Source: Candidatus Kuenenia stuttgartensis (lineage in GTDB: Bacteria > Planctomycetota > Brocadiia > Brocadiales > Brocadiaceae). Taken from it: DNA of 32,000 bases. Below are positions 11,930 through 22,366 of the stretch, one piece after another. The stretch's first letter is position 1, and every line of letters begins with the position of its first letter. The stretch spans positions 2,610,001-2,642,000 of the forward strand of contig NZ_LT934425.1 in NCBI RefSeq assembly GCF_900232105.1, read 5' to 3'. A program made the position numbers and the translations under genes. The notes beneath the pieces were generated by a model that saw only the letters and a program-made list of their open reading frames with translations, was not told the DNA's origin and did no database searches.

Positions 11930-12217
11930 GTGAGAACCCCTGAAGAGTCAAAGATCGTATGGACTGACTATATGAAATATAGAGCCGAATTAAGAGGATT
12001 TGAACTACTTAAGGTTGAAAATATATTGCGGTATTCGGGAGAAATATACTTCGATACTGCAACCCAACGTTTAATTGCAGTAGGTAAACATGATGATAGA
12101 CTGGTTATAATTCCATATGAGAAACAGGGGTGTGAAATAACACCTATCTCAATTCATGCTACTACGCGTCAACAAATTAATTTCCGACTTAAAACGGGGA
12201 GGTTCATATATGGATAA
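11930..12217 (+). CDS. DUF4258-like small protein (putative toxin of a DUF4258/DUF2283 pair)
   Basis: 95 aa with a GTG start preceded by GGAGG. IVWTDYMKYRAELRGFELLKVENIL...LVIIPYEK...ITPISIH. 8-nt overlap (ATGGATAA) with the next gene. Confidence 0.6.
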   Translation: MRTPEESKIVWTDYMKYRAELRGFELLKVENILRYSGEIYFDTATQRLIAVGKHDDRLVIIPYEKQGCEITPISIHATTRQQINFRLKTGRFIYG

Positions 12218-12437
12218 AACAAAGATGGCATATTTTAAAGATGAAGATATTCTGCATATAATTATCTCTGAGGAAAAAGAAGCAGATAGCATTGAGTTAA
12301 GCCCGAATATTACAGCGGAGCTGAATGAAAGCGGAGAATTAATTGGCATAGAAATATTAGAGGCAAGTTCTTTTCTTCGCGATTCAATATTGGAATCATC
12401 ACAAGCTAAAATACTTAAATTAAAAAAAACCGTATAA
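12210..12437 (+). CDS. DUF2283-family protein (putative antitoxin)
   Basis: 75 aa from the ATG at 12210 (GGGGAGG 7 nt upstream). MDKTKMAYFKDEDILHIIISEEKEADSIELSPNITAELNESGELIGIEILEAS fits the pattern YD.e.D.l.i.l....s.e....vd.d..G.lvGiEil.As. Confidence 0.75.
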   Translation: MDKTKMAYFKDEDILHIIISEEKEADSIELSPNITAELNESGELIGIEILEASSFLRDSILESSQAKILKLKKTV

Positions 12438-12490
12438 CAATCAAATTCAGCGGACGGCTAATAGTCCACCGCTGATTTCTGTCGTTATGT
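12432..12490 (+). repeat. attC-like imperfect palindrome after the DUF4258/DUF2283 cassette
   Basis: GTATAAC (12432-12438) and GTTATGT (12484-12490). Inner stem aaat(t)cagcgg / ccgctgattt has 10 bp with one bulged T. The ending tgtcGTTATG is shared with the 11762-11833 element while the centre differs. Confidence 0.35.
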
Positions 12491-12653
12491 TTCACGATGA
12501 CTGGAGTGCGGCATGAAGCTGGAAAGCTTTGGCGATGTACTTGCATCCATAAGGAAGAACTCTATTGATCCCTCAGATTACAGCGATTGTACGGGTGCAT
12601 TCCTGATTTTTTGTAACTTCCGCTATGTTTTAATGAAACGTTGCAGTAGTGTT

Positions 12654-12668
12654 AACCCTGACAGGGTT
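12654..12668. repeat. Single REP unit AACCCTGACAGGGTT
   Basis: Exact 15-nt palindrome of the family that flanks the RAYT gene. Confidence 0.8.
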
Positions 12669-12771
12669 GTTTCGTCCTGACCCCATCATTAACGGTTACA
12701 AAAAAACGGGAATGCTCCCGATTGTACAGATTAAAAAAACGTAGGAACACGGAGCACCATGTCCCTGCAAT

Positions 12772-12928
12772 TGACCAATGACCAATGACGAAACACCTTC
12801 TAATTACAAGCCCAAATTCCGCAGACAAGGAAAAATGTTCAATATTCAATTCTCAATGTTCAATTCTCAAATTGTTGCTCATTTGCCTCTATTCTTTTAC
12901 ATTGAGCATTGAATATTGAATATTAATT
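12772..12928. repeat. Heptamer-periodic repeat block (TGACCAA x3, then AATNYTC arrays forming a long hairpin)
   Basis: tgaccaa tgaccaa tgacgaa (12772-12792). aatgttc aatattc aattctc aatgttc aattctc (12834-12868), opposed by attgagc attgaat attgaat (12901-12921). Confidence 0.8.
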
Positions 12929-12961
12929 TTCAAAAAGGTGCTAACGGAGCTTTTCGCGGTG

Positions 12962-12986
12962 TTTTTTCAAAAATCTAAAGTGTTAC
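12962..12986. repeat. Solo copy of the TTTTCAAAAAYCTAAAGTGTTAC motif, 13 nt upstream of the helicase start
   Basis: ttttttcaaaaatctaaagtgttac. A weaker second copy (ttttcaaaaaggtgctaac) lies at about 12927-12945. Confidence 0.6.
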
Positions 12987-12999
12987 AAAAGACTTCTTA

Positions 13000-15900
13000 A
13001 TGAAGATGGGGAATAGCCGCATTGTGAACTCAGATTTAACCTTTATTACCAATGAAGAAAATAGAAGCCTCCTGGAAAGATTCAGGGTCCTTATTGCAGA
13101 CACCCGGCTCTTTGATGTACTCGTTGGTTATTTCTATACCAGCGGATTCCATGCCATCTACAAATCCCTGGAAGATACCGAAAAGATCAGGATTCTTATC
13201 GGGATAAGTACAAACAAACAGGCAATAGAACTCATTCAAAAAGCAAAAAACAATCACCAGCCATTCCTTCCATATTCTCACGCCGAAGTAAAAGAACAAT
13301 TCGAACAATCTGTCACGGAAGAAGTAGAAAATGCTGAGGATAGAACAGAAGTTGAAGGGGGGATCCTTAAGTTTATTGAATGGCTGAAAAACGGAAAACT
13401 GGAAATCAGGGCTTATCCCACCGAAAATATCCACGCAAAGCTTTACATTATGACTTTTGTGGAAGGTGACAGGGATACCGGGAGAGTCATTACCGGGTCT
13501 AGTAATTTTACTCAATCAGGCCTTGTTGATAACCTTGAATTTAATGTAGAGTTAAAAACCAGGGCGGATTATGAATTTGCACTCCAAAAATTCAATGAAC
13601 TGTGGAAAGACGCCGTTGATGTAAGGGAACGATATATCTATACGATTCAAATAAAGACATGGCTGAACAACACCATTACCCCTTACGAATTGTATCTGAA
13701 ATTTTTATATGAATATTTCAAAGACGAACTCAGTCAGGCAGATGAAGTGTTTTTGAAATATCTTCCCCATGAATTTAAAAAACTGGAATATCAGGAGCAG
13801 GCAGTTTTAAACGCCAGGAAGATACTTCTGGAATACGGCGGCGTTTTTATCTCTGATGTTGTAGGGTTAGGCAAGACATACATATCGGCAATGCTGGCAG
13901 GACAGCTTGACGGCAGGACACTTGTCATTGCCCCTCCTGTGCTGCTTGAAAGATCGAATCCCGGTTCATGGACTAATGTATTTTCCGATTTCAGGGTATC
14001 GGCGGATTTTGAATCACTCGGTAAATTGGATGACCTTATTGACAGAGGGACAGAGAAATACACCAATATTATCATTGATGAGGCACACCGTTTTAGAACG
14101 GAAACAACGGTTACCTATGAGAAATTGGCGGAAATCTGCCGTGGCAAAAGAATTATTCTTGTAACGGCAACGCCTTATAACAATGCGCCAAAAGATATTT
14201 TAAGTCTTTTAAAATTATTTCAAAAAGCCAAAAAAAGCACTATTCCAAATCTTCAGGACATGGAAGGCTTCTTTAATGGACTAGATAAAAAGTTAAAAAA
14301 ACTGGACAGGCAGAAAGATTATATTAGATACATAAATACGGTAAAAGAAAATGCGCGGGAATTACGGGAAAAAGTCCTCAAATATCTCATGGTTCGCCGT
14401 ACCCGAACAGAGATTGAGAGATATTTTGGTGAAGACATAAAGAGCCAAAACATTAGATTCCCTTACGTTGAAAAGCCTGTTCCTCTTTTTTATGAACTCA
14501 ACGATACGGAGGATGAAATATTCAGCAAAACCATAGCATTGATAGCGCAAAAATTCAAATACGCCCGTTATATGCCTATGCTTTATTATGACGGTAAAGT
14601 TGGCCAGCTTGAAAAGCAGTCACAGAAAAACATGGGCAAGTTTATGAAAATACTGCTTGTTAAGCGTCTTGAAAGCAGTTTCTTTGCATTTAAAAATTCG
14701 GTGGACAGATTCCTCCGCTCTTACGAGATGTTTATAAAAGAGCTTGATGACGGAAGTGTTTATATAAGCAAGAAACACACTGGTAAAATATTTGAGTTGC
14801 TTGATAGTGACGATGATGAAGCCGTCCAGCGATTGATAGAGGAAGGCAAGGCGGAAAGATATGCAAGCAGTGAATTTAGAGAAGGCTTAAGAGATGATTT
14901 ACAGCACGACCATGACATTCTGCTTGAAATTAAAAAACTATGGCATCACATTGACCGCGACCCAAAGCTTTTAAAATTTTTGTGGGAATTATCCAAAAAC
15001 CCGGTCTTAAAAGAGAATCATCTGATTATCTTTACGGAATCAAAGGAAACCGCAAACTATCTGTTCAAAAACATAAATGAACATTATCCGGATAAGGTGC
15101 TGTGTTTTACTGGTGATTCAAGCGAGGCAACGCGAGACAAGGTTATTGAAAATTTTGACGCCAAAGCACGTCATCCTAAGGAAGATTACCGGATACTGGT
15201 CTCTACAGAAGTATTGGCTGAAGGCGTTAACCTGCACCGTTCCAATACAGTGATAAATTACGATATCCCCTGGAATCCTACCCGCATGATGCAGCGCGTA
15301 GGGCGTGTCAACCGCGTGGATACGCTATTTGAAACGATACATACCTTTAATTTTTTCCCGACCAAACAATCGAATGACCAGATAAAACTGAAAGAAGCGG
15401 CAGAGGCTAAAATCAATGCCTTCTTAACCCTGCTTGGAGGCGACGCAGAACTTTTAACAGAAGGAGAACCCATAGGCTCGCATGAATTATTTAACAGGTT
15501 GATTTCCAGACAAACGCTGGAAGGTGAGGAAGGGTCGGAGGAAAGCGAATTGAAATACCTCCAGGTCATTAAAGAGATTCGCGATAAAGACCCCGACCTT
15601 TTTGAAAAAATAAAACGCCTCCCCAAAAAGGCGCGCACTGCAAAAACCCTGACAGGGTTCTCAACCCTGTCAGGGTTAATTACCTACTTCAGACGGGGAA
15701 AACTCCAGAAATTTTTCAAAGCCGGCAGTAAAAATGTGGCGGAAGAACTGGATTTCATATCTGCGGCAAAGATTTTGGAAAGCGCCCCTGATGAAGAAAA
15801 GAAAGACCTTCCCGGACACTTTTACGAACTTCTGGATAAAAACAAAGCGGCATTTATCTTAGCGACAACGGAAGAAGTGCCGCAGCAATGGCAAAGGGGC

Positions 15901-16224
15901 GGACGTGACAGCACGGCAAGTATCCTGAGAATTTTAAAGGCAACCACGAAGAACACCCAAAAACTGACAGAAGACCAGGAACTATACCTCAAAAAAGTCC
16001 TCACCCAACTCGAGGAAGGCGGACTGCCCAAACAGACTGCAACGCAAACACTGAAAACCCTGAATGCGCTGAAGAATGAAATCGTTAACCCCCTCAAGGT
16101 ACTGGCAGTACTTCGGACGCATATACCGAAAAAACTTCTGGAAGAACATTATGCTGAGCAAAACCCAGCGGTATTTGGCAAGCGGGAAGTCATATTATCA
16201 TTATATTTGACAGCAAAACCCTGA
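13000..16224 (+). CDS. HKD/PLD-family nuclease domain fused to an SNF2-family helicase (defence-type helicase-nuclease)
   Basis: 1074 aa. One HKD motif, NIHAKLYIM...VITGSSNFTQSGL. Helicase motifs DVVGLGKT (I), IIIDEAHRFR (II), VTATPYNN (III), EGVNLH...NYDIPWNPTRMMQRVGRVNR (V/VI). Contains an in-frame REP doublet, and its stop codon lies inside a REP. Confidence 0.9.
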   Translation: MKMGNSRIVNSDLTFITNEENRSLLERFRVLIADTRLFDVLVGYFYTSGFHAIYKSLEDTEKIRILIGISTNKQAIELIQKAKNNHQPFLPYSHAEVKEQFEQSVTEEVENAEDRTEVEGGILKFIEWLKNGKLEIRAYPTENIHAKLYIMTFVEGDRDTGRVITGSSNFTQSGLVDNLEFNVELKTRADYEFALQKFNELWKDAVDVRERYIYTIQIKTWLNNTITPYELYLKFLYEYFKDELSQADEVFLKYLPHEFKKLEYQEQAVLNARKILLEYGGVFISDVVGLGKTYISAMLAGQLDGRTLVIAPPVLLERSNPGSWTNVFSDFRVSADFESLGKLDDLIDRGTEKYTNIIIDEAHRFRTETTVTYEKLAEICRGKRIILVTATPYNNAPKDILSLLKLFQKAKKSTIPNLQDMEGFFNGLDKKLKKLDRQKDYIRYINTVKENARELREKVLKYLMVRRTRTEIERYFGEDIKSQNIRFPYVEKPVPLFYELNDTEDEIFSKTIALIAQKFKYARYMPMLYYDGKVGQLEKQSQKNMGKFMKILLVKRLESSFFAFKNSVDRFLRSYEMFIKELDDGSVYISKKHTGKIFELLDSDDDEAVQRLIEEGKAERYASSEFREGLRDDLQHDHDILLEIKKLWHHIDRDPKLLKFLWELSKNPVLKENHLIIFTESKETANYLFKNINEHYPDKVLCFTGDSSEATRDKVIENFDAKARHPKEDYRILVSTEVLAEGVNLHRSNTVINYDIPWNPTRMMQRVGRVNRVDTLFETIHTFNFFPTKQSNDQIKLKEAAEAKINAFLTLLGGDAELLTEGEPIGSHELFNRLISRQTLEGEEGSEESELKYLQVIKEIRDKDPDLFEKIKRLPKKARTAKTLTGFSTLSGLITYFRRGKLQKFFKAGSKNVAEELDFISAAKILESAPDEEKKDLPGHFYELLDKNKAAFILATTEEVPQQWQRGGRDSTASILRILKATTKNTQKLTEDQELYLKKVLTQLEEGGLPKQTATQTLKTLNALKNEIVNPLKVLAVLRTHIPKKLLEEHYAEQNPAVFGKREVILSLYLTAKP
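15645..15677. repeat. 33-bp REP doublet inside the helicase ORF (in frame)
   Basis: aaccctgacagggtt-ctc-aaccctgtcagggtt, translated as (K)TLTGFSTLSGL. Confidence 0.9.
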
Positions 16225-16249
16225 CAGGGTTCTTAACCCTGTCAGGGTT
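16217..16249. repeat. 33-bp REP doublet, left flank of the RAYT; supplies the helicase stop codon
   Basis: aaccctgacagggtt-ctt-aaccctgtcagggtt. The helicase TGA (16222-16224) is the cccTGAcag of the first unit. Confidence 0.9.
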
Positions 16250-16270
16250 ACTTGTCCTTGGAGGAAGACA

Positions 16271-16834
16271 ATGAGCACAACTATCACGCCACTGTTACCA
16301 GGACACTGGTATCATATTTATAACCGGGGTATCAATGGCGAAACCATTTATCACACCGAGGCAAATTACCAATATTTTCTGGACTTGCTCGCCAAATATG
16401 TTTTTCTCACAGCAAAAGTATATGCCTATTGTCTTATGAAGAACCATTTTCACCTGTTGGTTTCTATTCATGATGATACAAAGAGAAAGCCACATCTGTA
16501 TTTTTCAGATATGTTTAACAGCTATACACAAGGGCTTAACAAACACCTGGGAAGGACGGGGAGTCTCTTCGAACGCCCCTTTCGCCGTAAGGTGATTTCA
16601 TCCGAAAAACAGCGGGTTCAGGTGACTTTATATATACACAACAATCCCAGGCATCATGGTATCATGAACGACATTGCGAAGTACCAATACTCTTCTTACA
16701 GGGCAGTGATGTCAAGCGCCCCAACGAAAGTAGAGCGTGAAGAAGTGCTTTCGTGGTTTGGTGGGCGTGATAGTTTTGTGGCTTATCATGGTGCCAGTCG
16801 TGATGACATTTCAGATGATTTAACATTGGAGTAA
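16271..16834 (+). CDS. REP-associated tyrosine transposase (RAYT; IS200/IS605 Y1-transposase superfamily)
   Basis: 187 aa. WYHIYNRGINGETIY, HUH motif AYCLMKNHFHLLV, catalytic-Tyr region TLYIHNNPRHHG, and FNSYTQGLNKHLGRTGSLFERPFRRK. Flanked on both sides by REP doublets. Confidence 0.85.
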   Translation: MSTTITPLLPGHWYHIYNRGINGETIYHTEANYQYFLDLLAKYVFLTAKVYAYCLMKNHFHLLVSIHDDTKRKPHLYFSDMFNSYTQGLNKHLGRTGSLFERPFRRKVISSEKQRVQVTLYIHNNPRHHGIMNDIAKYQYSSYRAVMSSAPTKVEREEVLSWFGGRDSFVAYHGASRDDISDDLTLE

Positions 16835-16844
16835 ATTTACCGTC

Positions 16845-16877
16845 AACCCTGACAGGGTTTGAAACCCTGTCAGGGTT
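16845..16877. repeat. 33-bp REP doublet, right flank of the RAYT
   Basis: aaccctgacagggtt-tga-aaccctgtcagggtt, ending 16 nt upstream of the MTase ATG. Confidence 0.9.
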
Positions 16878-16893
16878 AAAATGAGGCATTGAC

Positions 16894-19800
16894 ATGGATA
16901 AACAACAGGCAAAACAAATTATTCAGGAGACATTTGAGAACCCTTTTGATAAGGGCAGGTTTACCCTATTCATCAAAAATCTTCTGAACCATATTGAAGA
17001 AAACCGCATTCCTCCACGTCATGGTCAATTCATTCCTGACGCTTACAAGCCATACATCAGCAGTCTGGCGCGAATCGGCAAATTCAATGACAATGAAAAC
17101 AGGGTTGATATCCTTATCATAAAACTTCAGAAAGAGACCTCCCTTGAACGCGCCCGCACCATGCAGCGAAACTTTGTTGCCGGGTATTTACAGGGCAAAT
17201 ACGGTAGTTCAAATGAAAAAGAAGCTGCACTGGTTGCCTTTGTATCCCCGGATTCGGCAGACTGGCGTTTTTCACTGGTTAAGATGGACTATAAGTTTGA
17301 ACAGACTCAAGCCGGCAGAATGAAGGTAAAAGAAGAGTTTACACCTGCACGCCGATGGTCATTCCTGGTAGGCGCAAACGAAACCAGCCACACCGCCCAG
17401 AGCAGGCTGGTTAATATGTTGGCAAATGATGAGCATAACCCAACCCTTAAAGAACTGGAACAGGCATTTGATATTGAAACCGTAACCGAAGAATTTTTCC
17501 GAGAATACCGTGGGCTTTTTATCCGTACAAAAGAAGAACTGGACAAAATAGTAGAGACAGGTTTCAAACCTGTCTCTACCAGCCTGAAAAAGGAATTTGA
17601 ATCTAAAGGAGTTGATACCGTAAACTTTGCAAAAAAACTATTGGGCCAGATTGTATTTCTCTATTTTTTACAGAAAAAAGGCTGGTTCGGTGTAGCCCGC
17701 GAAGCCGAATGGGGCACAGGCTCTAAACACTTTTTGCGAGAGCTTTTTGAAAAAAGGCACGGCGACTATAAAAATTTCTTTAATGACATTCTGGAACCAC
17801 TCTTTTACGAAGCCTTGCGTAACGACCGCAGTCATGATGATCACTATTACAGCCAGTTTAACTGCAAAATCCCCTTCTTAAACGGTGGTCTTTTTGATCC
17901 CATTGGCAACAATGGCGGATACAACTGGGTACATAACGATATCTGTCTGCCGGACAGCCTATTCTCTAATAAAAATAAAACCAAAGAAGGCGATGAGGGT
18001 AATGGTATTCTGGATATTTTTGACCGTTACAATTTTACTGTTAGAGAAGATGAACCACTGGAAAAAGAGGTTGCCATTGATCCTGAACTTCTGGGCAAGG
18101 CGTATGAAAAGTTTAATGCAGTCCGTCCTGACAACTTTGAGGAATATGAAAAAGCGTTAAAGAGCGGTAAAAAAGGTGAAGAAAGCAAATTCAACAAGCA
18201 ATATGGCGTTTATTACACACCCCGTGAGATTGTCCACTATATGTGCCAGCAGAGCCTGATCAATTACTTGCACACAGAATTGATCGCTTCCAACCCTGAC
18301 AGGGTTCCAAACCCTGTCAGGGTTAAAGATATCGAAACCCTGATACACTTCGGCGAGCAGGTTAGCGAAAATGAAGAAATAGCATTGATCAAAGAACAAA
18401 TAATCTTAGAGGGTAAACAGAAATCTTCTGATTACAAATCAAAACTACCCGAAAGCATACGCAAGAATGCCGTATTAATTGATCAGAAACTGGCGGACAT
18501 CACCGTCTGCGACCCGGCAGTTGGCTCAGGCGCCTTTCCCGTTGGTATGATGAGCGAAATTGTAAAGGCGAGAAATGCGCTAGCACCCTTTATTGTAACT
18601 CAAGCTTCCCTATCTGCGTGTGTAGACGCACAGGCAGGCAGCTTGAGCCCAGGAACCCTGTCAGGGTTAAGGTTAGATACGCCAAGAACAACCTATGATT
18701 TCAAACGGCAATGCATCGAAAAATCTCTTTACGGCGTGGATATTGACCCCGGCGCGGTAGAAATTGCAAAACTTCGGCTGTGGCTATCGCTTGTTGTGGA
18801 TGAAGATGACATAAAAACCATCAAACCGCTACCCAATCTGGATTATAGAATTATGCAAGGCAACAGTCTGATTGAGATTCTAAACAACGAATTTTTTGAT
18901 GTGGCATTTAATCAAGAGAAGAAGGCACTTATAGAGCAACTTAAAAAAGCAAAGGACGAACTTTTTGCAATTTCAACTCCTTCATTAAAAGATGCAAAGC
19001 GAAAAGAAATTGAGGCATTGATTGCCAAAATTATTGAGCATGACAAAAAGGCAGCAATAGAAAAAATAAATTTAGAAATTCGTAGTAAGAAGGAACAAGG
19101 CAAGTTGTTTAATGATAAAATAATAGAAGAAGTAAATAGTAAGAGGATATTAGAATTAGAGGGAAAAATTCAAAAAATAAAAGACCTTAAAATCCCAGGA
19201 CCATCAGAACATTTTGAATGGCATCTTAATTTTGTCGAGGTTTTTCTCGAAAAAGGAAGATTTGATATTGTGATTGCAAATCCACCTTATTTACGCATTC
19301 AAGAAATCCAGAAAAATACTCCGGAACTAGCTGGAAAACTTAAGGATTGTTACTTATCAGCATCAGGCAGCTTCGATATTTATGCCTGTTTTGTTGAATT
19401 GGGAATAAGGTTAATGCATGATAGCGGTAACATTGCTTATATATTACCGCACAAGTTTTTCCAGGCATCTTTTGGGAAGAACCTACGAAAATTAATTTCC
19501 TCACAAAAGCTTTTACGAAAAATTGTAGATTTCGGTAGTAGTCAGGTATTTGAATCAGCAACAACATATACGTGCCTTCTGTTTTTATCTTCTCAAAATA
19601 AGAATTTCAAGTTTGCGGAACTGAAACCAAATACAAAATTAGACGATTTAAATGATGTATTTGCGTCTATAAATAGCAATAATGACTTGCGTTCAGAAAA
19701 TGTAGATGTTGCAATCATATCAAATAATACTGTGACAGAAAAAGAATGGCACTTTTCTGCAAGTAGTGCTGGAAATATCCTGTCCAAATTGAAGCAACAG

Positions 19801-20668: not shown

Positions 20669-22366
20669 ATGAATAAAATACTTGATAAATTACATCACAT
20701 GTCTAAAATTCCCAGGCATGGTACAGACTGTTATAAGCAATGGCTTGAACAGAAAGATTTTTTGCAGTTTCTTTTAGATACAAGCCATGGAGATATTCCT
20801 TTATATGTCTCTTATAAAGAAAGCTATATTTATTCTGTATTTCTACCGCAAAACTGTCTGCGGGGGAATTATATTGACGATTTAATGAATTGGAACTGCT
20901 TCCCTGACAGTTCATGGGGATACAGTTATTCTTATGGTAAAAAGGAAAGGGCAATAGATATTTCTCTTTTGCATCCTTTCGATTCTTCCGGGTCAAAATT
21001 ATTAAAGAATGCAACCCCTATAACTTTTCTAAGGAGTTTTGAAGGCAGAATAGGGCAAAAAAGTTATATAGAGGTTCTTCAATTGTTTACCCATCTTAAT
21101 GGTTTGCACTTTGTAGAAGAAAAGAATGCCTATTGTCGCTTAAATGAAGATGGAGATATTGAAGAAATTATTAAAATTCATCATACACCGGATGATATTT
21201 TAGTTACCATTAAACAAGATGTACTGGATCATCATTTGTTTCTATCTAACTCAGTATTGTTACGACTTTTTGACAGAACTCTTTGCAATAACTGGATAAA
21301 ATCTAGCGCAGAAACCCGGAATAAATCTAATTTTTCTGATAAAAAGAATAAAATATATGCTCGACAAGGTATTGCGTATGATAAAGAATGTCTGCCCACT
21401 GCGGGCTGGCTGAGAGGATTTCAAATCATACGAAATTATCAGCCACGCAAAAAGATGATAAAGATTTTAACCGATGGACATTCAAAACCTCAAAAGTATG
21501 AAGAGTTTATTGCCCATGATTGGAAGCGTAAGAAAATTGCGTCTTTTTCCTGTGACCCCAAAAAACTGGACAATTATTTTGTTGAATCAGATAAACCTTT
21601 TGAGACATCTCCTGTGTTTTTTAAACCAGATGTCCTTTTAAAGTATAAACAGAATCCAGAAAAATATACTCTCGAACAACGAAGTATACATTGTAGGGAG
21701 AGTTGGAGTTTAAAAACATACGATATTAACGAAGCGGGCCAAGTCCATACCTATTTGATTTACTTGGGAGATCTTCCGCATTCAGAACAACTTCATTGGA
21801 AGTCTTATAATGAGAAACCAAAGGCTAAAATATCCAGGAGAGCTTTTACAACAGATTTCATGGGGAAGTGTGATTTATCGTATGAGCCTTTATCTGCATT
21901 AAAAAAAGCTCTAAAAGATTTAGAGGAAGAAAAACCAGATTTATGGTCATGTTCAGATGGAAAACTAAATCAGCAACTCCACTATCCGGTTACTGATTCA
22001 CTGAAAGAATGGATAGACGAAATTCATACATTGGATAAGCTTGTAGTTGAAGGGCTTAAAAAACCGTATTTAAGGAATATAGCGATATCATTGAATTGTT
22101 ATGACAATAAAGTGGGCACTATAAAACTACTAAAAAAGATTCTTGAGACAAAAGAAATTGATAGTCATGAAATCAACGAAATCATATCCCCTTTGGAAGA
22201 TATTCATTTTTTGAGAACAAAGTTAGCTGGGCATAGCTCTGGAAAAGAAGCAGATAAAATCAGAAAAGATCTAATTGCAAAGCATGGAGACCTAAGAAAG
22301 CATTTTCGCAACCTTGTTGAAAAAACTGATAAAAGCATAAAAGGGATGAAACGAATCCAACTATAA
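20669..22366 (+). CDS. Uncharacterised 565-aa protein, third gene of the helicase/MTase module (possible C-terminal HEPN-like Rx5H)
   Basis: Long uninterrupted ORF 41 nt after the MTase, on the same strand and with the same AT-rich composition as the MTase 3' half. No P-loop, TM segment or nuclease motif was seen. The only candidate motif is IHFLRTKLAGHSSGKEA near the C-terminus. Confidence 0.6.
   Translation: MNKILDKLHHMSKIPRHGTDCYKQWLEQKDFLQFLLDTSHGDIPLYVSYKESYIYSVFLPQNCLRGNYIDDLMNWNCFPDSSWGYSYSYGKKERAIDISLLHPFDSSGSKLLKNATPITFLRSFEGRIGQKSYIEVLQLFTHLNGLHFVEEKNAYCRLNEDGDIEEIIKIHHTPDDILVTIKQDVLDHHLFLSNSVLLRLFDRTLCNNWIKSSAETRNKSNFSDKKNKIYARQGIAYDKECLPTAGWLRGFQIIRNYQPRKKMIKILTDGHSKPQKYEEFIAHDWKRKKIASFSCDPKKLDNYFVESDKPFETSPVFFKPDVLLKYKQNPEKYTLEQRSIHCRESWSLKTYDINEAGQVHTYLIYLGDLPHSEQLHWKSYNEKPKAKISRRAFTTDFMGKCDLSYEPLSALKKALKDLEEEKPDLWSCSDGKLNQQLHYPVTDSLKEWIDEIHTLDKLVVEGLKKPYLRNIAISLNCYDNKVGTIKLLKKILETKEIDSHEINEIISPLEDIHFLRTKLAGHSSGKEADKIRKDLIAKHGDLRKHFRNLVEKTDKSIKGMKRIQL

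Follow-up and report, generated by a model that had tools for sequence, protein, structure and literature searches.

A putative RAYT-type palindromic doublet read in frame in a restriction-type helicase of Kuenenia, within a variable linker

The DNA analysed here is a stretch of 32,000 nucleotides of Candidatus Kuenenia stuttgartensis (assembly GCF_900232105.1, contig NZ_LT934425.1, positions 2,610,001 to 2,642,000 of the forward strand), referred to as the window, in whose own numbering all positions are given. It carries a gene for a helicase with PLD and SNF2 domains, a gene for an Eco57I/Type IIG-like methyltransferase (methylase) and, between the two, a gene for a protein resembling the tyrosine transposases (RAYTs) associated with repetitive extragenic palindromic (REP) sequences. 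Several copies of a short palindromic repeat are dispersed among these genes (Table 1). One of them is a doublet, AACCCTGACAGGGTT-CTC-AACCCTGTCAGGGTT, which occupies positions 15645-15677 inside the helicase open reading frame (ORF) 13000-16224 and is the subject of this report. We consider it probable that this doublet is a tolerated and old REPIN-like insertion in a permissive linker of the helicase.

Table 1. Genes and repeat copies of the window
Feature	Position	Strand	Remarks
Single REP 15-mer	12654..12668		Upstream of helicase operon
PLD (HKD) nuclease + SNF2 helicase, 1074 aa	13000..16224	+	Pfam PLDc_2, SNF2-rel_dom, Helicase_C
REP doublet, loop CTC	15645..15677		In frame in helicase, aa 882-892; RNA minimum free energy -28.1 kcal/mol, z = -4.3
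REP doublet, loop CTT	16217..16249		Spans helicase 3' end; left flank of RAYT gene
RAYT-like Y1 (HUH) transposase, 187 aa	16271..16834	+	Profile matches, conserved residues, predicted fold
REP doublet, loop TGA	16845..16877		Intergenic; right flank of RAYT gene
Eco57I/Type IIG-like N6-adenine methyltransferase + TaqI_C specificity domain, 1244 aa	16894..20628	+	Pfam; helicase partner
REP doublet, loop CCA	18292..18324		In-frame copy within hypervariable loop 1 of the methylase; reads NPDRVPNPVRV (other open frame)
Methylase loop 2	18598..18690		About 28 extra residues of nested/adjacent palindromes
Single REP 15-mer	18654..18668		In methylase loop 2

The doublet in the helicase gene and its copies in the window

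The original prediction, made from the letters of the window, was that a REP doublet of 15+3+15 = 33 bp is read through the helicase gene without breaking its ORF. The doublet was found at exactly this place, and the translation across it, ...ARTAK-TLTGFSTLSGL-ITYF..., is free of stops. The encoded peptide is (K)TLTGFSTLSGL, where the K codon (AAA) before TLTG takes its third base alone from the element. The 15-mer AACCCTGWCAGGGTT is present in 10 exact copies in the window as compared to 0.03 expected, and none of 100 shuffles reached 10. All ten copies are confined to 12654-18668, the remaining 26 kb having none, and they make up the four doublets of 33 bp that had been predicted (starting at 15645, 16217, 16845 and 18292) and two singles. 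The doublets at 15645 and 18292 are wholly coding. That at 16217 provides the helicase with its last codons and its TGA stop (AAA CCC TGA, 16219-16224); the resulting C-terminus, LYLTAKP, is common to the Brocadia alleles P0005 and P0019-23, and REP-free alleles end in LTGE or LTGK.

A chimeric assembly had been named as a possible source of the doublet. The TLTGFSTLSGL peptide is present in helicase P0001 as well (Ca. Kuenenia stuttgartiensis, 99% identity; 34 member sequences, 5 contigs), and the same DNA is present in the independent Brocadiales assemblies L063, L077, L093, L118 and L125, thereby excluding an assembly artefact. A shufflon-like inversion between doublets was also considered and was rejected, since the strand opposite 15678-16216 contains no long ORF. 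Rfam analysis of 12000-19500 revealed no family at or near any REP copy, and its two weak matches elsewhere were far below the gathering scores.

A hairpin repeat tied to RAYT homologues across phyla

A scan for the exact doublet in one genome per species yielded at least 120 loci (L001-L120). The A-centred 15-mer is the reverse complement of the T-centred one, so that the 33-mer folds into a perfect stem of 15 bp closed by a loop of 3 nt. Thirty distinct arm variants from the loci listed were aligned and two ways of folding were compared. Pairing between the arms left 96.2% of cells paired, with compensatory changes in 8 of 15 pairs and a covariation of 0.256 which none of 500 shuffles reached, as against 91.0% of cells, 3 of 14 pairs and a covariation of 0.122 for two 7-bp palindromes within the arms. 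In arm variants such as AACGCTGACAGGGTT...AACCCTGTCAGCGTT the small palindromes are broken while the long stem is kept. Since both the covariation and the variants favour the long stem, the unit is one 33-nt hairpin, similar to a REPIN.

The loop measured 3 nt in 133 of 134 pairs of an A-centred followed by a T-centred arm (121 sequences from the loci listed), and the loops of these 134 copies were diverse in sequence. By construction, two of the three frames of the unit are free of stops on either strand, the third frame giving KP-stop. The constant length of 33 bp had earlier been taken to mean that only codon-neutral, stop-free insertions survive in genes. This proposal was not sustained, because the 3-nt loop is nearly universal and about 90% of the copies are intergenic; 33 nt is thus the element's own size. 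The GTAG/CGTC tag was absent: the flanks of the 134 doublets were not conserved, and GTAG, CTAC or CGTC lay within 6 nt in at most 5 cases. Literature searches for the 15-mer, or for Kuenenia together with REP, returned nothing relevant, which is not proof of absence.

That the repeat is a RAYT-type REP, as first supposed, was supported by the neighbouring gene, which is bracketed by identical doublets (16217-16249 and 16845-16877) and whose predicted fold resembles that of a known RAYT. The ORF at 16271-16834 matched NCBIfam REP_Tyr_transpos (NF047646; E 6e-12, 45.6 bits, below the curated cut-off of 80) and Pfam Y1_Tnp (PF01797; E 0.004, 17.6 bits, below the cut-off of 23). It has 3425 homologues, several of them named RayT by JGI, and in 88 homologues H59 and H61 (the HUH motif) were invariant and Y121 was at least 90% conserved. 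The AlphaFold2 (AF2) model has a predicted local distance difference test (pLDDT) score of 93.5, and its best Foldseek match in the PDB was 4ER8, the E. coli RAYT with a REP hairpin (E 2e-8, TM 0.59/0.66), with a sequence identity of 14%. The next matches were the IS608, ISDra2 and IS200 transposases. Sequence searches of the PDB with the RAYT and with the C-terminal 274 aa of the helicase gave no match.

Three RAYT genes elsewhere contain an in-frame copy of their own doublet, some 200-280 nt into the coding sequence (L010 5905-5937, L072 1795-1827 and L084 6367-6399), and degenerate copies are present within two more (L013 1405-1437 and L053 4516-4548). Judged by their offset and by the secondary structure of the model, these doublets would correspond to a site close to the loop that follows strand 59-66 in the model of the window RAYT.

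Among the matches listed, the doublet was found in Bacteroidales, Flavobacterium, Spirosomataceae, Balneolaceae, KSB1, Vecturithrix/Moduliflexus, Kuenenia and Brocadia. In 12 of the loci listed, doublets adjoin a RAYT homologue with 31-87% identity to that of the window, and they stand on both sides of the gene in L037, L084, L028, L020, L010 and L072. RAYT homologues flanked by the unit belong to Bacteroidota, KSB1, Balneolaceae and Brocadiales. The element is repeated, hairpin-forming and tied to RAYT homologues across phyla. REPs usually differ between species, which makes conservation of this hairpin across phyla unexpected. The exact 33-nt hairpin is common to at least five phyla, and the RAYTs adjoining it in L028, L013, L053, L020, L084, L010 and L072 are 31-46% identical to that of the window.

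Overlap with genes was counted for the 114 doublets that lay far enough from locus ends, a doublet being taken as intragenic when at least 75 codons deep in an open frame. Twelve of them (10.5%) were intragenic, as compared to 53% of random positions in those loci, and nine of the twelve were read as TLTGFxTLSG and three as NPDRVxNPVRV. They include helicase alleles (L063, L077, L118), the RAYT genes L010, L072 and L084, and, as named from their translations, an AroA-like gene (L106 3603-3635), a GNAT-like gene (L120 6943-6975) and a membrane protein gene (L017 1950-1982). Translations also placed three of them in large surface proteins of Bacteroidota (L033, L098, L113), just before an apparent C-terminal sorting domain of the type IX secretion system (T9SS); two more such proteins with a doublet (L119 and L052) fell outside the count of twelve.

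This distribution bears on whether TLTGFSTLSGL is a native helicase peptide, or the palindrome an operator or recognition site of the restriction system, with its likeness to a REP being coincidental. The peptide is indeed conserved in several anammox alleles. However, the same 33-mer is also intergenic, is read in the other frame in the methylase (NPDRVxNPVRV) and runs across a stop codon; it recurs at no fewer than 120 loci of other phyla, beside RAYT homologues and in unrelated genes (AroA-like, GNAT, T9SS cargo); and helicase homologues of unrelated taxa do not have it. We regard such an origin as exceedingly improbable. A controller or operator palindrome in particular was rejected in view of the cross-phylum, RAYT-linked distribution.

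Origin and age of the doublet in the helicase linker

Sixty close homologues of the helicase were aligned. The doublet lies downstream of the Helicase_C domain (aa 671-773). Non-anammox helicases, the named ones being from Bacteroidota, Deltaproteobacteria/Desulfobacterota, Nitrospirota and Methanosarcinales, are 77-89% identical to that of the window and are all without the REP; the 11 residues are thus not native helicase sequence, in agreement with the original prediction. REP-free helicases have a variable 8-residue linker (HNTEHANS, YHAEQANS, RSAEYANS) between PKKART[AS]K and LITYFRRGKLQKFF. The motif TLTG[FL]xTLSG was present only in Kuenenia/Brocadia alleles and in metagenome sequences close to them (P0001-6, 10, 14, 19-21, 23), and P0016 has one REP only (YCKTLTG). 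At the DNA level, the linker of the window is GCAAA[AACCCTGACAGGGTTCTCAACCCTGTCAGGGTTA]ATTACC, with 34 nt, and those of the REP-free alleles L121 and L123 are TCAAA[ACGTAGCGCTGAATACGCAAATTCTCTG]ATTACC and GCAAA[GCATAATACTGAACATGCAGGCGTTCTG]ATTACC, with 28 nt each. An indel of 11 aa relative to homologues, as had been anticipated, did not appear in the alignment: the 34 nt stand in place of the 28 nt, with a net gain of 2 aa.

Variability (entropy) along the alignment has one of its three highest peaks at the linker; the doublet is, therefore, situated in a hypervariable linker. In a low-confidence AF2 model of the helicase (mean pLDDT 54.7; shallow alignment, 77-91% identity), aa 866-890 form a coil with pLDDT below 50 between helix 865-872 and strand 892-899. 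Three unrelated hairpin repeats are present in this same linker in three lineages: the AACCCTGWCAGGGTT doublet in Kuenenia, a CTCAAG/CACAAGCAGGATGCTTGTG pair in Brocadia WS118 (L009), which occurs 3 times in its own locus, and a CCCCCC/GGGGGG palindrome in Nitrospirota (L126). The folds of the respective linker segments are -27.0, -27.7 and -31.6 kcal/mol; in the REP-free alleles L121 and L123, where no hairpin repeat is present, they are -3.3 and -3.4 kcal/mol.

Six diverged REP-bearing alleles all keep an intact, conserved helicase ORF; over 200 flanking codons, about 32% of their four-fold degenerate sites differ. Since the insertion is common to alleles that far apart, it is old and not recent. 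The original prediction had spoken of a defence gene "being remodelled"; this was not upheld, as the insertion is old and stable and the linker alone is affected. The six alleles have the same sequence in both arms, whereas the loops read CTC, GGA, CTC, CTT, TGG and GAG. Four-fold sites invariant in all six alleles numbered 8 of 8 in the arms as compared to 13 of 32 in the flanks (P about 7e-4, binomial; about 2e-4, resampling). Thus, the arms are held at the nucleotide level and are conserved beyond neutral expectation. This constancy can come either from constraint on the hairpin or through the RAYT, or from concerted evolution or re-insertion.

It may be asked if the intragenic hairpin is itself functional and kept by selection on DNA or RNA, as a RAYT binding site, as an mRNA structure by which translation or stability of the helicase message is tuned, or as a short identical patch for recombination between alleles through which C-terminal modules are exchanged. 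Invariant arms around a free loop and a strong fold (-28 kcal/mol) would agree with this. So would the phylogeny: trees of helicase aa 1-870 and aa 896-1060 disagree on the REP-bearing alleles, which form three groups in the former and nearly one clade in the latter, and the partner of highest similarity switches shortly after the REP, at aa ~900-920 (about 15700-15760 of the window; alleles P0003 and P0019). These discordant trees indicate that the helicase alleles are probably mosaic. However, concerted evolution or repeated insertion predicts the same conservation of arms, and sliding identity at the protein level could not place the breakpoints on the REP. The 15645 hairpin is not followed by a T-tract and is, therefore, not an intrinsic terminator, a terminator-like score having been obtained for the 16217 copy only. 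The unrelated repeats at the same site elsewhere point to tolerance rather than to a specific function. A functional hairpin appears unlikely to us on balance.

The junctions of the doublet raise a further alternative, namely that it entered the same linker several times independently, at a preferred target such as a pre-existing hairpin or a TGCAAA motif. TGCAAA lies directly 5' of the REP in all variants of the helicase site, and GCAAA is present at the 16217 copy. Three distinct upstream junctions are seen, that of the window, that of L125, where four additional codons (QCCK) precede the doublet, and that of L124, where YCK is followed by a single REP. Identical arms with loops differing in five of the six alleles, three unrelated repeat families in one linker and the lack of monophyly of REP-bearing alleles in the N-terminal tree would also fit repeated entry. 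As opposed to this, the downstream junction GGGTTA-ATTACC is the same in all alleles but for one G variant, the near-single clade of the C-terminal tree fits one origin followed by recombination, and the flanks of 134 genomic copies did not contain a conserved target motif of this kind. Repeated entry is held to be unlikely.

A single old insertion into a permissive linker is the explanation which we prefer. A REP copy would have landed in the short hypervariable linker of the helicase of a two-gene restriction-type system, in the ancestor of the Kuenenia and Brocadia alleles, and would have been retained since. It would have fallen in one of the two stop-free frames and been tolerated. The linker may later have been trimmed in frame to near its original length, 10 aa as compared to the native 8, with L125 and L124 as possible surviving longer and shorter intermediates. 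That the arms stay constant in DNA while the loop drifts would fit a lasting constraint on the hairpin, through recognition by the RAYT or through concerted evolution with other copies in the genome, and not selection for the peptide. As a part of the protein the doublet is most likely a neutral flexible linker, and as nucleic acid it presumably behaves like other REPs of its family.

Several observations weigh against this explanation. The net change is +6 nt and not +33, i.e. a simple insertion was not observed, and the path of insertion followed by trimming is a reconstruction; no empty-site allele near enough to give a precise junction was found, the nearest REP-free helicase being 89% identical. 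Identical arms with different loops could also reflect repeated independent insertion or gene conversion. The helicase model is poor, so that a placement in a surface loop is tentative. Finally, the window RAYT scores under the curated Pfam and NCBIfam cut-offs, and the 33-nt repeat, which probably belongs to the RAYT encoded 600 bp downstream, is its putative substrate.

The restriction-type operon and related in-frame repeats

The original prediction had placed the doublet in a defence gene, and the host is indeed of this type, a PLD+SNF2 helicase with a Type IIG-like Eco57I methylase making up a restriction/defence-type operon. The helicase matched HKD+Snf2 and DrmD-like entries of PADLOC, and its NCBIfam matches were partial. 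The methylase matched PADLOC REase_MTase_IIG (PDLC03596) with 1119 bits in 4 stretches, the first of which ends at aa 468, exactly at the doublet. Matches to the named NCBIfam systems (DISARM DrmD, BREX PglX) were all far below cut-off; hence the system was not filed as DISARM or BREX. Synteny of helicase and methylase is kept in L121, L124 and L126, and L123 and L125 are cut off by the end of the contig or locus before a methylase could be recognised. Helicases 77-89% identical to that of the window occur across Bacteroidota, Desulfobacterota, Nitrospirota, Marinimicrobia and a Methanosarcinales archaeon (P0007-P0120), with thousands of matches. This similarity across phyla would imply a very recent and wide horizontal spread of the restriction system.

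The methylase, too, carries repeats in variable loops. In loop 1 the 18292 doublet takes the place of a native loop, which in homologues consists of 5-60 unrelated residues or is filled by other repeats. Loop 2 contains CTCAAGCT...AGCTTGAG around a second hairpin with GTAG, followed by the single 15-mer; in most homologues this loop has about 4 residues. Other repeat-like peptides, recognised from translations only, are present in both loops in other lineages. Complete Y1/RAYT sequences lie in frame in loop 1 of the methylase homologues P0145 (Brocadia sp. WS118) and P0205, and a different RAYT lies in frame in loop 2 in L124 9987-14144 (Brocadia sp. GCA_030409075.1). These in-methylase RAYTs have intact HUH and YxxNP motifs with their own repeat-derived peptides on either side, and the methylase genes that hold them are called as single proteins of 1359-1404 aa.

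The slot between helicase and methylase varies in content. It holds the RAYT in the window (16225-16893), a Bro-N protein in L121 (4040-4867), an SLFN/AlbA_2 protein in L123 (3640-4554; the contig ends before a methylase is visible), a 76-aa protein with PIN_3, resembling a toxin-antitoxin pair, in L124 (9259-9905) and L125 (9275-9921), and nothing in L126. The third gene of the operon (20669-22366, + strand, 565 aa) had no Pfam, NCBIfam or PADLOC match. Upstream of the helicase start, 12780-12940 contains the short direct repeats GACCAATGACCAATGAC, TTCAATTCTCAA (twice) and TTGAATATTGAATATT, which may be regulatory.

We propose, tentatively, that this helicase-methylase system, which is widely transferred, could offer in its variable loops both landing pads and safe havens to the REP/RAYT elements that each new host contains, and that the hairpins may stay active there, their arms constrained at the nucleotide level, and promote the exchange of modules between alleles. 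Only in-frame, function-sparing insertions would persist at such sites, because loss of the methylase is lethal in an active restriction system. The proposal draws on the three repeat families of the helicase linker, the repeat-like peptides of the methylase loops and the in-frame RAYTs of three Brocadia-type lineages.

REPs of the GTAG/CGTC type that lie wholly inside ORFs have been described in several species (Di Nocera, De Gregorio & Rocco 2013, BMC Genomics 14:522; PMC3733652). According to that study, over half of the intragenic REPs are dimers or groups, encoding 20-30 aa; many are in genes for DNA synthesis and repair, including helicases and recBCD; REP ends can provide stop codons; and recB of two Xanthomonas species has different REPs at one site. 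The study also links intragenic REPs to the Rickettsia palindromic elements (RPEs; Ogata et al., cited there). Like those REPs, the Kuenenia repeats are palindromic, RAYT-associated and paired, with one copy in frame in a helicase and another supplying a stop codon. The Kuenenia family differs from them in having no tag or conserved flank, in its unit, a fixed 33-nt perfect hairpin of 11 aa instead of dimers of 20-30 aa, in its occurrence in Planctomycetota (Brocadiales), Bacteroidota, KSB1 and other phyla, and in that the element replaces a native linker instead of just adding residues.

As in the REP or bacterial interspersed mosaic element (BIME) and RAYT (TnpA_REP) system of E. coli and the REPIN-RAYT system of Pseudomonas, a Y1 HUH gene is flanked by its own inverted palindromic repeats (REPtron architecture), the doublets form a long hairpin, the copies are mostly extragenic and the RAYT fold is closest to 4ER8. 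Unlike these systems, the family of the window is without the GTAG tag, its REP-REP spacer is only 3 nt, and an identical repeat is common to RAYTs that are 31-46% identical and come from different phyla. The analogy with RPEs drawn in the original prediction is apt, since in both cases palindromic repeats are in frame within protein-coding genes that are apparently still functional. RPE-1 is much longer, about 100-150 bp or 30-50 aa, and is, to our knowledge, restricted to Rickettsia and has no identified cognate transposase, whereas the Kuenenia element is of 33 bp with the RAYT adjacent.

In-frame intragenic REPs are, therefore, already known as a phenomenon, from the GTAG/CGTC REPs in 2013 and from the RPEs earlier, and the present case is another instance. 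Its interest may lie in the wider pattern. An untagged 33-nt hairpin is exact across several phyla while the RAYTs have diverged to 31-46% identity, which may merit follow-up. Host-specific palindromes recur in the helicase linker, and repeat-like peptides in the methylase loops, of a system that is conserved at 77-89% between bacterial phyla and an archaeon. Such helicase-methylase systems could act as natural reporters of where REPs land and of what proteins tolerate, and the RAYT together with its 33-nt hairpin offers a tractable substrate for work on how REPs disperse.

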